From NCBI RefSeq assembly GCF_056712565.1, contig NZ_CM160072.1: a stretch of DNA of 64,000 nt. The stretch is one strand, 5' to 3'. Within the stretch, counting starts at the first letter, position 1. Every line of letters starts with the position of its first letter. Positions 51,701 through 61,447 of this stretch are shown piece after piece. The notes below the pieces were generated by a model. It saw nothing but the letters and a program-made list of their open reading frames with translations, was not told the DNA's origin and made no database searches. Made by a program: the position numbers and the translations under genes.

Positions 51701-52281
51701 TTTTTACGCTTCCTTACCCGTTTCAGTGAAGCCTGAGACAATGAGTAAACCGTTAATATCCCTCCATCAAAGCCATCCATCTTATTTATATATTAAACAT
51801 ATACCCCATTAATGAATTTCATTTATATATTCTATAAATCAATTTATTTTGGTTATGTTAACATTTCAATATCACAACAGGGCGCTACGCTTATATAATC
51901 ATTGTACAAAAAGCACACAACTTTTTAATTAGTAGAAAAATTAATAATTTTTTGTGAAAGCCCGGACAATAAGTTTAATGAATATCTTAATAGACTCTCA
52001 TACTACCCAATTTCTTAAAAGTGCAAATTTGTGAAGCTTATCCTGTTATTATTTTAAGTTTCATGCCAAATTCTCTCACCAGATAATGCCGCCCTCTTCC
52101 GAAAAATAATCAAGAGGCCAAACAATATCTAAAATGATACAACTGTATCTATTCCCCTGAAAAATACATTATTCATTTGTATATTTTCCTCATCATTGCT
52201 TTTTATTTAAATCATCCGATAATCCCCTGAATATAATTATGTCAATAACCATCAGAAAAAGTGGATGATGAGGAAAAGGAT
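51701..52281 (+). promoter_or_regulatory. AT-rich island junction and T6SS promoter region
   Basis: About 580 bp of strongly AT-rich non-coding DNA between the tRNA terminator and tssB; contains a Fur-box-like gataat...attat stretch at about 52218-52250. Confidence 0.4.
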
Positions 52282-52782
52282 ATGGCTGACAGTTTCCAGA
52301 ATGAAGTTCCCACCGCTCGTGTAAATATCAAGCTTGATCTGCATACAGGCAATGCTAAAAAGAAAGTTGAACTCCCCCTCAAGCTTCTTGCCGTAGGCGA
52401 TTACAGTAACGGAAAAGAGCAACGTCCGCTGTCCGAACGGGACAAGGTTGATATCAATAAAAACAACTTCAACAGCGTCATGGCTGAGTTTTCGCCTGCG
52501 GTTAATTTAACAGTAGAAGATACGCTAAACGGAAACGGTAATGAACAAAATATCGCGCTTGAATTTAAAAGCCTGAAGGATTTTGAACCCGAACAGGTAG
52601 CAAAAAATATTCCGCAACTTCGTGTATTACTCGCTATGCGCAATTTACTACGTGACCTGAAATCCAATCTGCTGGATAACGCAACGTTTCGCCGTGAACT
52701 GGAAAATATTCTGAAAGACCCGACGCTCAGTTCAGAACTGCGTGATGAACTGGCGAAAATTGCGCCGCAGGAGAACGTTTAA
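52282..52782 (+). CDS. tssB: T6SS contractile sheath small subunit TssB (VipA)
   Basis: 166 aa from MADSFQNEVPTARVNIKLDLHTG... with gaggaaaagga Shine-Dalgarno; ORF-track start at 52261 is an alternative. Confidence 0.85.
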   Translation: MADSFQNEVPTARVNIKLDLHTGNAKKKVELPLKLLAVGDYSNGKEQRPLSERDKVDINKNNFNSVMAEFSPAVNLTVEDTLNGNGNEQNIALEFKSLKDFEPEQVAKNIPQLRVLLAMRNLLRDLKSNLLDNATFRRELENILKDPTLSSELRDELAKIAPQENV

Positions 52783-52834
52783 CCCGAACACGTATTCAGG
52801 TTAAACCGGAGAAGAAAGGATCACTGAAAAGGAA

Positions 52835-58617: not shown

Positions 58618-58645
58618 GGCAGACAGGAAACTGTCTGCCTTTTTG
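58618..58645 (+). terminator. rho-independent terminator downstream of hcp
   Basis: ggcagacag-gaaa-ctgtctgcc stem-loop followed by ttttt. Confidence 0.75.
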
Positions 58646-58801
58646 TTGTGTGCTTTGTCCAGTGCCGCAGGCACCGGTACTGAGCAAAGCATACCCACAA
58701 TCTGGTGAAACCTGATGGGCCTGAGTGAGGTAACGGCTATGGGCGGTAGCGTGCCTGAACGCGGATCGCAGGAATACAGAACACGATAAGGAAACCCTTC
58801 T

Positions 58802-61447
58802 ATGACAGGAAATCACCCCGCCGCGCTGCTGCGTCGCCTTAACCCATACTGTGCACGGGCGCTGGACGCTGCCGCCTCACTGTGTCAGACCCGCGCCCAT
58901 GCGGAGATAACCATTGAACACTGGCTGCTGAAACTGCTGGAGCAGGGAGAAGGCGATATCACGGTGATTGCCCGCCGCTATGAATGGGATATCGACACGC
59001 TCTGGCAGTCTCTGCTGGCACATCTGGACACCTTACCCCGCTCGGTCCGCGAACGTCCGCAGCTTTCTGAACCCCTGACGGCGCTTATCAGGCAGGCGTG
59101 GCTGATTGCCTCGCTGGAAGGCGACGACCCGCAAATCCGCAGTCAGCACCTGCTGATGGCGCTGACAGAAAAATCGATGCTGCCCGCCTGTAATGACCTG
59201 TGGGTATTGCTGAGTCTGAGCCGCGTGCAGCTTGAGCGGCTGCGTCCCCTGCTGGATGCGCAGTCGGATGAATGTCCGGCACGTCAGCCACAGGTCACCG
59301 AACCGCTGACCTCTGCACTGCCGGAGACGGCAACGGCGGACGCACCGGCAAAAACGCTGACGGAGAAACAGGATGACGCCCTGCTGGCGGTGCTTAACCG
59401 CTTTACCGAAGACGTGACGGAAAAAGCCCGCAGCGGGCGAATCGACCCGGTATTCGGGCGCGACACGGAAATTCGCCAGATGGTCGATATCCTCTCCCGT
59501 CGCCGCAAAAACAACCCGATTCTGGTGGGAGAACCGGGGGTGGGCAAAACCGCGCTGGTGGAAGGGCTGGCGCTGCGTATCACCGAAGGCAACGTGCCGG
59601 ACAGCCTGAAAACGGTGCATATCCGCACACTGGACCTCGGTCTGTTACAGGCTGGCGCGGGCGTTAAAGGTGAATTTGAACAGCGGCTGAAAAATGTCAT
59701 CGATGCAGTGCAGAAATCACCGGAGCCGGTACTGCTGTTTATTGATGAAGCCCATACCATTATCGGTGCGGGTAATCAGGCAGGCGGCGCGGATGCGGCG
59801 AACCTGCTGAAACCGGCACTGGCAAGGGGCGAACTGCGCACCATCGCGGCGACCACGTGGAGCGAATACAAACAGTATTTTGAGCGCGACGCCGCGCTGG
59901 AGCGCCGCTTCCAGATGGTTAAGGTTGACGAGCCGGATGATGACACCGCCTGTCTGATGCTGCGGGGACTGAAGGCTCGCTATGCACAGCACCACGGCGT
60001 GCATATGCTGGACAGCGCCATTCAGACCGCCGTGCGCCTGTCGCGCCGCTATCTGACCGGACGCCAGCTGCCGGACAAGGCGGTTGATTTGCTGGATACC
60101 GCCGGGGCAAGAGTCCGCATGAGCCTTGACACCCTGCCGGAACCGTTGACGCAGCTTCATGCGCGACTGGCGGCACTGGATATTGAGCGGGAAGCGATTG
60201 AGCAGGACAGCGTATTTTATCCCGAAGCCAGCCCGGAGCGGCTGGCGGAACTGACCGATTTGCGTGATGAGCTACAGGCAGAAGCCGGGCATCTGGAAGC
60301 GCAGTATCAGCAGGAAAAGGCACTGGCGCAGCAGATTATGACGTTGCGTCAGGAAGGAACAGACAGCACTGAACTGCAACAGCAACTGCGAACGCATCAG
60401 GGCTTTGCACCGCTGCTGGCGCTGGATGTGGACGCCCGCGCCGTCGCTACGGTGGTGGCGGACTGGACCGGCATCCCGCTCTCATCCCTGCTCAGGGACG
60501 AGCAGAGCGATCTGCTCAGTATGGAACAGAGCCTTGAAAACCGCGTGGTCGGGCAACGCCCGGCGCTCTGCGCCATCGCACAGCGGCTGCGGGCGGCTAA
60601 AACCGGCCTCACGCCGGAGAACGGCCCACAGGGGGTATTCCTGCTGACCGGCCCCAGCGGCACCGGCAAAACCGAAACTGCGCTCACACTGGCCGACACC
60701 CTGTTTGGTGGTGAAAAATCCCTTATCACCATTAATCTTTCGGAATACCAGGAACCGCATACCGTTTCCCAGTTGAAAGGTTCGCCTCCGGGCTATGTCG
60801 GCTACGGTCAGGGCGGCGTACTTACCGAAGCCGTTCGCAAACGCCCTTACAGCGTGGTGCTGCTCGACGAAGTGGAAAAGGCGCATCGCGACGTGATGAA
60901 CCTGTTCTATCAGGTGTTCGACCGGGGCTTTATGCGCGACGGCGAAGGGCGGGAAATCGACTTCCGCAACACCGTCATTCTGATGACCGCCAATCTGGGC
61001 AGCGACCACATCATGCAGCTGCTGGAGGAAAAACCGGACGCCACGGACGCAGACCTGCATGAACTGCTGTATCCCCTTCTGCGAGACCATTTTCAGCCTG
61101 CACTGATGGCGCGTTTTCAGACGGTGATTTACCGCCCGCTGGGACAGGAAGCGATGCGCACCATTGTGGAAATGAAACTGGCGCAGGTGGTCCGCCGTCT
61201 TCACCAGCACTACGGACTGGAAACGGAAATCAACGACAGCCTGTATGACCAGCTTACCGCCGCCTGCCTGCTGCCGGACACCGGTGCGCGTAATATCGAC
61301 AGCCTGCTGAACCAGCAAATCCTGCCGGTCTTAAGCCAGCAGTTGCTGGCACAGCAGGCCGCGCACCGTAAACCAGCCCAACTACGGCTTGGCTGGGATG
61401 AGGAGGACGGGATTGTACTGGAGTTCGCTACGGAAGAGATGCAATAA
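58802..61447 (+). CDS. clpV: T6SS AAA+ ATPase ClpV (TssH)
   Basis: 881 aa; two AAA+ modules with Walker A motifs (GEPGVGKT, GPSGTGKT), ClpB-like. Confidence 0.92.
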   Translation: MTGNHPAALLRRLNPYCARALDAAASLCQTRAHAEITIEHWLLKLLEQGEGDITVIARRYEWDIDTLWQSLLAHLDTLPRSVRERPQLSEPLTALIRQAWLIASLEGDDPQIRSQHLLMALTEKSMLPACNDLWVLLSLSRVQLERLRPLLDAQSDECPARQPQVTEPLTSALPETATADAPAKTLTEKQDDALLAVLNRFTEDVTEKARSGRIDPVFGRDTEIRQMVDILSRRRKNNPILVGEPGVGKTALVEGLALRITEGNVPDSLKTVHIRTLDLGLLQAGAGVKGEFEQRLKNVIDAVQKSPEPVLLFIDEAHTIIGAGNQAGGADAANLLKPALARGELRTIAATTWSEYKQYFERDAALERRFQMVKVDEPDDDTACLMLRGLKARYAQHHGVHMLDSAIQTAVRLSRRYLTGRQLPDKAVDLLDTAGARVRMSLDTLPEPLTQLHARLAALDIEREAIEQDSVFYPEASPERLAELTDLRDELQAEAGHLEAQYQQEKALAQQIMTLRQEGTDSTELQQQLRTHQGFAPLLALDVDARAVATVVADWTGIPLSSLLRDEQSDLLSMEQSLENRVVGQRPALCAIAQRLRAAKTGLTPENGPQGVFLLTGPSGTGKTETALTLADTLFGGEKSLITINLSEYQEPHTVSQLKGSPPGYVGYGQGGVLTEAVRKRPYSVVLLDEVEKAHRDVMNLFYQVFDRGFMRDGEGREIDFRNTVILMTANLGSDHIMQLLEEKPDATDADLHELLYPLLRDHFQPALMARFQTVIYRPLGQEAMRTIVEMKLAQVVRRLHQHYGLETEINDSLYDQLTAACLLPDTGARNIDSLLNQQILPVLSQQLLAQQAAHRKPAQLRLGWDEEDGIVLEFATEEMQ

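Follow-up and report, generated by a model that had tools for sequence, protein, structure and literature searches.

The 64,000-nucleotide stretch considered here (contig NZ_CM160072.1, RefSeq assembly GCF_056712565.1), which we refer to as the window, carries core genes of an Escherichia coli type VI secretion system (T6SS) cluster, and the G+C content of these genes, from the sheath genes tssB and tssC to the ATPase gene tssH (clpV), is uneven. Several described systems lie close to this locus. The T6SS-1 clusters of Pantoea and Erwinia combine a core of ~60% G+C with hcp/vgrG islands of 42–48% G+C, and their vgrG has a C-terminal extension that is likewise low in G+C (De Maayer et al. 2011, PMC3235180). 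In enteroaggregative E. coli (EAEC), the sci1 promoter contains two Fur boxes that overlap the −10 element and three GATC sites within ~53 nt upstream of tssB (PMC3145626). Repression by H-NS has been reported for T6SS clusters of several species (PMC10482370), and in CFT073 binding of H-NS was found both within the tssH unit and upstream of it (Hustmyer et al. 2022, PMC9765446).

The locus in the window is an instance of the tRNA-Met-linked T6SS cluster of E. coli, a system that is already known. Judging from an identical ops element with the same 60-nt spacing, nothing substantive would distinguish it from the cluster of CFT073-type extra-intestinal E. coli. This tRNA-Met-linked cluster goes by the names T6SS-1 and metV island. 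The gene order tssB-tssC-tssK-tssL-tagL-hcp-clpV-vgrG is Sci-1-like and is found in the window and in 51 of the 81 related loci, taken at their full retrievable length. The same order occurs in the Sci-1-like cluster of E. coli OkiPb01677 (L084), although its proteins are only 56.6% (TssK), 38.9% (TssL), 34.2% (TagL) and 78.2% (TssC) identical to those of the window. Its gradient in G+C content at third codon positions (GC3) is milder, with values of 0.53 for tssB, 0.545 for 5′ tssC, 0.624 for 3′ tssC and ~0.59 for the remaining genes. In that record tssB is split by an IS600-family IS3 element (positions 7156–8920), and judging from this disruption the cluster is probably inactive; Sci-1-like clusters were found in 124 E. 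coli genomes.

A switch promoter of the EAEC sci1 type, controlled by Fur and Dam, is unrecognizable here. The 19-bp Fur consensus has no match within three mismatches anywhere in the window, the published boxes themselves fitting it at only 11–13 of 19 positions, such that weak sites are possible, and no GATC was seen on reading 51,647–52,281. Promoter-like hexamers are not enriched in that interval (6, compared with 4.3 ± 1.8 in shuffled sequence). Pantoea and Erwinia loci, which are among the 80 relatives used below, share the low-G+C vgrG end and cargo with the window. PMC3235180 describes such cargo islands, whereas the feature of the window is a gradient across tssB and tssC in the conserved block, and literature searches found no earlier description of a tssB–tssC GC ramp.

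We conclude, with a probability of roughly three in four, that the uneven GC content of the core reflects three ordinary effects superimposed on genes with a single history and not a chimeric assembly. (i) The core backbone, comprising tssK, tssL, tagL, tssH, tssM, tssA, tssF and tssG, is rich in G at third positions, with a GC3 of ~0.69 that is typical of the Enterobacterales cluster family. (ii) Starting in a regulatory region of 27–31% GC, a GC ramp crosses tssB and the N-terminal half of tssC and leads into tssK, covering ~3 kb in windows of total GC; this ramp is a trait of the whole cluster family that travels with the cluster, owing partly to protein composition and otherwise to synonymous codon choice. 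These first two effects are shown by the data below. (iii) What holds the ramp in place, we infer, is most likely selection acting at the DNA or RNA level where the sheath operon lies next to its promoter. Such selection could maintain an AT-rich platform on which H-NS/StpA nucleate and spread, or it could favor open, weakly structured mRNA and translation-initiation regions for heavily translated sheath genes; the two options are not exclusive. Neither tRNA adaptation nor a separate origin is a likely cause of the ramp.

Per-gene values bear out the initial annotation in its description of tssB and the 5′ part of tssC as AT-rich relative to tssK, tssL, tagL and clpV. GC3 differs meaningfully between genes, from 0.437 in tssB to 0.707 in tssL. 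On the plus strand, which carries the tRNA-Met genes, the T6SS genes and the ops element, a 635-bp non-coding region, presumed to be promoter or regulatory sequence (51,647–52,281; GC 0.310, or 0.27–0.35 in 300-bp windows), forms the low end of the ramp. It is followed by tssB, encoding the sheath small subunit (52,282–52,782; GC 0.441, GC1 0.593, GC2 0.293, GC3 0.437), which starts at ATG 52,282 in the RefSeq annotation and at GTG 52,261 in the first reading and which, with 166 codons, has the lowest GC3 in the core. In tssC, encoding the sheath large subunit (52,841–54,379; GC 0.510, GC3 0.589), the AT-richness is indeed limited to the 5′ part, GC3 rising from 0.525 in the first half of the gene to 0.652 in the second. 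Then come tssK for the baseplate subunit (54,397–55,734; GC 0.594, GC3 0.686), the short form of tssL (55,731–56,396; GC 0.592, GC3 0.707), a tagL-like gene (56,409–58,061; GC 0.615, GC3 0.697), hcp for the tube protein (58,119–58,610), tssH/clpV (58,802–61,447; GC 0.604, GC3 0.690) and vgrG (61,459–63,939; GC 0.555, GC3 0.638). As had also been noted, hcp is intermediate (GC 0.518, GC3 0.640). Beyond the window, GC3 returns to 0.65–0.70 in tssM, tssA, tssF and tssG.

The 18 flanking E. coli core genes that serve as host baseline have a mean GC3 of 0.556 (SD 0.050). The backbone GC3 of ~0.69 lies above this value, which is a signature of a horizontally acquired island. Between 54,880 and 61,444 (3′ tssK to tssH, without hcp), the fractions of third positions occupied by G, C, T and A (G3, C3, T3 and A3) are 0.41, 0.29, 0.16 and 0.14, compared with a G3 of 0.27 and a C3 of 0.26 in the flanking core genes; the family-mean backbone leans toward G3 as well (0.373).

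In 300-bp windows, total GC climbs monotonically from 0.27–0.30 in the upstream non-coding sequence to 0.42 in tssB, 0.46–0.49 in 5′ tssC and 0.51–0.56 in 3′ tssC, and peaks at 0.61–0.64 in mid tssK. The best single change-point in third positions falls at ~53,575, in mid tssC, with GC3 at 0.484 over the 411 codons on the left side and at 0.685 over the 2534 codons on the right; its log-likelihood ratio of 30.4 was equalled in none of 200 permutations. Given an equal number of parameters, a ramp model in which GC3 rises from 0.44 to 0.71 over ~2.8 kb, ending at ~55,120 inside tssK, gains 1.95 log-likelihood units over the best step (at 53,570).

Protein composition accounts for some of this unevenness. 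Given the amino acids of each gene and the codon usage of tssK, tssL, tagL, tssH, tssM, tssA, tssF and tssG, the expected GC3 is 0.647 for tssB, 0.635 for 5′ tssC, 0.651 for 3′ tssC and 0.619 for hcp, compared with observed values of 0.436, 0.525, 0.652 and 0.642, respectively. The intermediate GC content of hcp therefore comes entirely from its amino-acid composition. TssB is likewise a low-GC protein, as its GC2 indicates, yet most of its GC3 deficit is synonymous.

The gradient recurs across the cluster family. Of more than 571 loci that carry TssC, the 80 best serve as the related loci, with one genome per species, all from Enterobacterales, and the family set consists of 52 Enterobacterales clusters dereplicated at 90% nucleotide identity of tssC, in which synonymous sites have reached saturation with respect to E. 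coli. In 48 of the 52 clusters, the GC3 of tssB lies below the mean of tssK, tssL, tagL and tssH (mean difference −0.10). For the 5′ half of tssC, GC3 falls short of this mean in 43 clusters and of the value in its own 3′ half in 51 (mean −0.088). After amino-acid correction with each cluster's own codon usage, the mean residuals are −0.075 for tssB (negative in 42 of 52), −0.019 for 5′ tssC, +0.054 for 3′ tssC and +0.078 for hcp. Binned profiles place the family dip in the first ~80 codons of tssB and the first ~40 codons of tssC, with a weaker dip in the rest of the 5′ half, and the E. coli profile has the family shape at about twice the depth, reaching into early tssK. Averaged over the family, dips reach their greatest depth in the ~40 codons that open a gene behind an intergenic gap (tssB −0.13, tssC −0.15, hcp −0.07) and are absent at overlapping or closely abutting starts (tssL −0.01, tagL 0.00). 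In all 52 clusters tssB is promoter-proximal and lies behind an AT-rich upstream region (mean GC 0.36).

At four-fold degenerate sites, E. coli tssB is identical to tssB of the other clusters at a frequency of 0.246, with 0.241 expected, i.e., these sites are fully randomized. The synonymous sites of tssB are thus saturated, which implies that the shared low GC3 is maintained and not simply inherited. Amelioration toward host composition fails to fit, since tssB has a GC3 of 0.43–0.50 even in hosts whose flanking genes are at 0.61–0.69. Regression slopes on flank GC3 do not clearly differ between tssB (0.45 ± 0.14) and the backbone (0.29 ± 0.10). Elsewhere in the cluster, the C-terminal half of tssH has a four-fold-site identity across the family that exceeds expectation (+0.107).

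The initial annotation also suggested that the cluster was assembled from segments of different history. For tssB and tssC relative to tssK, tssL and clpV, this suggestion is unsupported, and the nearest relative sampled is the same throughout. By TssC, the closest locus is a near-identical cluster in Entomohabitans teleogrylli (L002), followed by that of Phytobacter diazotrophicus (L003), with others at ~80%. Gene-by-gene trees of 42 dereplicated clusters, built by neighbor-joining from Kimura distances with bootstrap, recover a clade of E. coli and Phytobacter each time. Bootstrap values for this clade are 84 for tssB, 100 for the N-terminal half of tssC, 100 for these two joined, 65 for the C-terminal half of tssC, 100 for tssK, 98 for tssL, 100 for tagL, 64 for hcp and 100 for tssH. 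It is the majority result in nine of nine segments, such that the differing nearest relatives of a chimeric core are not seen. By segment identity, Phytobacter is also the top match for the N-terminal half of tssC, tssK, tssL, tagL, hcp and tssH. The N-terminal half of tssC is ~69% identical to its relatives, and the C-terminal half is ~93% identical to all of them and hence holds little signal. At the four-fold sites of conserved residues, the excess identity to Phytobacter is +0.109 for the N-terminal half of tssC, +0.141 for tssK and +0.157 for tagL.

The Entomohabitans copy (contig NZ_LLXO01000037.1) matches positions 52,258–63,050 of the window at ~95% identity overall, and all 300-bp bins between tssB and vgrG fall in the range 0.91–0.99. 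The homologous stretch starts at 52,258, 24 nt 5′ of the tssB ATG, and the sequence further upstream is unrelated, which indicates that the low-GC tssB travels with the cluster rather than with the local promoter. In the same record, a 70-nt match to the sequence right behind the E. coli tRNA-Met genes lies ~4.6 kb upstream. Judging from sequence comparison, either the whole block would have passed between genera recently, or the assembly would be contaminated or assigned to the wrong organism.

Against two further E. coli alleles, the window shows differences in small patches, with identities of 0.91–1.00 per bin and no boundary at tssC; variation of this kind is as expected from within-species recombination. 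In sliding comparisons with three close alleles, no drop in identity was found at ~53,575. Composition and identity do not break together at tssB/tssC, and they do so at ~63,050 in vgrG, which serves as a positive control. In the 5′ part of tagL, the interval 56,450–56,750 is only 72% identical in E. coli REF2 (L082), where neighboring bins are at 91–98%, and forms a small allelic replacement patch.

A perfect RfaH ops element, GGCGGTAGCGTG, lies at 58,742–58,753 in the hcp–tssH intergenic region (58,611–58,801), 60 nt 5′ of the tssH ATG. In CFT073, where tssH is c3392, GGCGGTAGCGTG is found at the same 60-nt distance, and an RfaH chromatin immunoprecipitation signal extends over tssH-vgrG-c3398 (PMC9765446). 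Among 45 dereplicated Enterobacterales clusters, the 8-mer core GGCGGTAG is present in the hcp–tssH intergenic region of 43 and the full GGCGGTAGnnTG in that of 36. From this conservation, a second, RfaH-dependent transcription unit that begins before tssH seems to be a family-wide feature, and the ops site plausibly allows RNA polymerase to read through AT-rich cargo downstream.

A more specific form of the third effect would be that the ramp is a selected cis-regulatory platform for H-NS/StpA within coding sequence that keeps the sheath operon silent by default and, together with the ops site, constitutes a conserved two-tier system of silencing and counter-silencing in this T6SS family. We advance this idea tentatively, as a reading of fairly low probability, by analogy with H-NS/StpA silencing and RfaH counter-silencing (PMC9765446). 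The likeness lies in ~0.6 kb of AT-rich sequence (27–35% GC) that runs into a coding stretch of 42–49% GC at the front of an acquired cluster, and in an ops site that stands ahead of a distal operon crossing AT-rich cargo; the connection between the ramp and silencing would follow from this likeness. More generally, a DNA- or RNA-level cause is hinted at by the dips behind intergenic gaps, by the H-NS reports cited above and by A/T runs of at least 6 bases, which, relative to synonymous permutation, are in excess in tssB (z = 1.95 in E. coli, family mean z = +0.56 ± 0.15) and are avoided across the family in tssC (−0.52) and tssK (−0.75).

Several points weigh against three superimposed effects on a single-history core, or limit the evidence for them. 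(i) E. coli ranks first of the 52 clusters in tssB deficit and second in 5′ tssC deficit. (ii) The T3 of tssB is 0.315 in E. coli compared with a family mean of 0.234, an excess beyond what the family trait alone would give. (iii) The invariable position of tssB as first gene behind an AT-rich region makes an effect of position inseparable from an effect of the gene. (iv) Across the 52 clusters, upstream GC content and the size of the tssB deficit are uncorrelated (rho −0.13, p = 0.37). (v) The excess of A/T runs in tssB partly restates the gradient within the gene. (vi) By raw identity the nearest relative of TssB is ambiguous, with the Providencia loci L079 at 77.0% and L074 at 75.8% and Phytobacter at 75.5%. 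(vii) The relatives are only the best 80 of the available loci, the trees are neighbor-joining trees, and the weights used for the codon adaptation index (CAI) are those of the Sharp & Li 1987 E. coli table.

The first two of these points would be accommodated by drift at the island edge that is specific to E. coli, in which a mild family trait is deepened as C to T changes, an AT-biased form of mutation, accumulate at an edge that is normally silent under H-NS and is also homogenized with the core flank by recombination. Consistent with this, the C3 of tssB is 0.218 in E. coli compared with a family mean of 0.294, identity among E. coli alleles is 97–100% at the left end (51,650–52,850) compared with 91–97% further in, and the sister Phytobacter cluster has a milder gradient. 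Still, we consider this explanation unlikely. The amino-acid-corrected tssB residual of −0.205 makes E. coli the most extreme case yet inside the family range, since five other clusters, belonging to Enterobacter, Pantoea and Cedecea, have values of −0.19 to −0.20; with only 166 codons, tssB has a standard error of ~0.04; and in the Entomohabitans copy tssB has an unchanged composition with a different sequence upstream of it. The depth that E. coli shows beyond the family may come from AT-biased drift in its own lineage or, in so short a gene, from sampling noise.

Translational selection offers another way to pull GC3 away from the G3-rich backbone, if the abundant proteins TssB, TssC and Hcp had codons tuned to abundant tRNAs. 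Different codon selection among the genes had been raised in the initial annotation, and in relative terms it holds for hcp and 3′ tssC, which are enriched in C3 and have higher CAI. In the cluster, CAI is highest in hcp (0.468), followed by 0.394 for the 3′ half of tssC (0.378 for the whole gene), with other core genes at 0.28–0.36. Family-wide, C3 is 0.407 in hcp and 0.368 in 3′ tssC compared with 0.294 in the backbone, in line with their positive corrected residuals. In tssB and 5′ tssC, GGY makes up 0.80 of Gly codons and CGY 0.86 of Arg codons, and GGG, CGG, CGA and AGG are avoided.

As tRNA adaptation of tssB, by contrast, the idea fails. With a CAI of 0.307, tssB does not exceed most of its neighbors, and its family-wide C3 of 0.294 shows no enrichment. 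Third positions in tssB and 5′ tssC are shifted toward T/A in nearly all codon families (the exceptions are Phe, Tyr, Lys, Glu and Ser), including the C-optimal Asp, Asn, His and Ile, whose C-ending fractions of 0.31, 0.42, 0.33 and 0.38, respectively, are at or below the level of core genes and lack the rise expected of highly expressed genes; in their lean toward T these four resemble average E. coli genes. The non-optimal TTA, CTT, ACA and CAA are common in tssB and 5′ tssC, and expression level cannot account for a GC3 gap of 0.13 between two halves of a single gene, tssC. E. coli-type translational optimization of tssB is thus rejected on CAI and two-fold codon choice, and as a general account of the unevenness translational selection is quite improbable: it explains hcp and perhaps 3′ tssC, but not tssB. 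The codon-selection reading of the initial annotation is partly supported, with tssB under some other gene- or position-specific constraint that is synonymous and family-wide.

A true recombinant mosaic, in which tssB to mid tssC was swapped in from a lower-GC lineage with a breakpoint at ~53,575, is very unlikely. In its favor, the best single change-point sits within tssC, the codon usage of tssB and 5′ tssC is like that of average E. coli genes where the remainder looks foreign, the raw TssB matches that rank above Phytobacter include low-GC Providencia, and genuine module swapping exists in the cluster, at the 3′ end of vgrG. However, a separate origin of tssB and tssC is rejected on the segment bootstraps, on the synonymous identity to Phytobacter, in which the N-terminal half of tssC matches tssK and tagL, and on sliding identity, which shows no break at 53,575 in any comparison. 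Moreover, a ramp describes the data no worse than a step, and the gradient recurs in 48–51 of the 52 independent clusters.

The weakest explanation, that Lys/Glu/Asp/Asn-rich TssB and Hcp lower GC through protein composition only, can draw on their low GC2 (0.293 for tssB and 0.372 for hcp, compared with 0.41–0.48 for other genes), on a full account of hcp GC3 and on the roughly half of the total GC deficit of tssB that falls at codon positions 1 and 2, but as sole cause it stands for hcp and is refuted for tssB, where the GC3 shortfall is ~5.7 standard errors by simple binomial arithmetic and the corrected family-wide residual remains negative (p = 4e-7), and for 5′ tssC with its own shortfall, which leaves it highly improbable overall.

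At the 3′ end of vgrG, the cluster does contain a true mosaic junction, at ~63,050. In bins of 40 codons, vgrG GC3 drops there from 0.65–0.80, the level of the conserved N-terminal part, to 0.30–0.60, and the 300-bp bin concerned also shows a collapse of identity, relative to other E. coli alleles and the Entomohabitans copy alike, from 0.92–0.96 to 0.5–0.66. Low-GC cargo continues past the window at 32,460–37,151 and 42,123–45,029 of the E. coli 19AR1321 chromosome record (L001, whose coordinates equal the window position minus 31,499). This cargo, which comprises a lipase-family effector, Tli4-family immunity proteins, PAAR proteins and hypothetical proteins, has a GC3 of 0.25–0.38 and lies between core genes at 0.65–0.70. 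Both the vgrG 3′ junction and the boundaries of the cargo module are already documented for the cluster family.

The window holds a tRNA-Met-linked T6SS island of E. coli. Its positions 51,400–61,500 are 100% identical to the 19AR1321 chromosome. Three tandem tRNA-Met genes of the metZWV type lie at 51,350–51,646 (RefSeq annotation; 19,851–19,927, 19,961–20,037 and 20,071–20,147 of L001); the island begins after them, with the onset of the cluster 635 bp past the third. The full 51,400–61,500 stretch was found in 1053 of 5426 complete E. coli genomes, compared with 5425 of 5426 for its first 250–270 bases, which contain the three tRNA-Met genes. Alleles of tssC with at least 90% identity occur in 1334 of the 5426 complete genomes, including the type strain and Nissle 1917. 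In three E. coli records (L001, L082 and L083), the cluster sits behind the tRNA-Met triplet with identical gene order. The adjoining tRNA genes, the partial presence in the species and the non-host composition are the marks of a horizontally acquired, tRNA-linked island, and the ~95%-identical copy in another genus, Entomohabitans, lends this further support. In E. coli EC596 (NZ_CP156718.1, 986,982–987,164), the match is confined to the initial 183 nt of tssC (96.7%), and the gene annotated there encodes a VasL-domain protein. From the alignment, this fragment looks like the scar of a deletion that removed most of the T6SS cluster.

The RefSeq gene order on L001 is mltA, three tRNA-Met genes, tssB, tssC, tssK, tssL, an OmpA-family (TagL-like) gene, hcp, tssH and vgrG, followed past the window by lipase-type effector and immunity genes, PAAR genes, tssM, tssA, a PAAR toxin gene, tssF, tssG, tssJ and tssE. 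All matching NCBIfam models, of equivalog or subfamily type, exceed their curated cut-offs: TIGR03358 (TssB, 162.6 bits), TIGR03355 (TssC, 662 bits), TIGR03353, NF038239 (TssL, 285 bits), TIGR03344 (Hcp), TIGR03345 (TssH, 1105 bits) and TIGR01646 (VgrG). With TssB, TssC, TssK, TssL, Hcp, TssH/ClpV and VgrG recognized, the locus belongs to a T6SS core cluster. TssK matches the EAEC TssK structures 5m30 and 6gj3 (E = 4e-163; 547 bits over 445 residues for 5m30). The 550-residue TagL-like protein has an OmpA-like peptidoglycan-binding domain at residues 416–540, and this C-terminal domain matches the solved OmpA-like domains 7rjj, 5m38 and 7bba. Other 1-kb GC dips in the window (0.41–0.43) are found at 38,001–39,000, 2001–3000 and 7001–8000, the first of which overlaps the divergent fucA–fucP intergenic region and the 5′ end of fucP.

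Differences in GC and GC3 between the genes of an acquired cluster are by themselves no evidence of chimeric assembly. The tssB–tssC ramp is an ordinary, minor compositional detail that opens no new question, and the synonymous AT-richness that tssB and 5′ tssC keep across dozens of hosts, in spite of saturation, adds a small descriptive point to what is known of this family. If silencer binding or mRNA accessibility does hold the ramp in place, it would matter for the recoding or transplanting of T6SS operons and would also bear on how T6SS weapons stay off by default.

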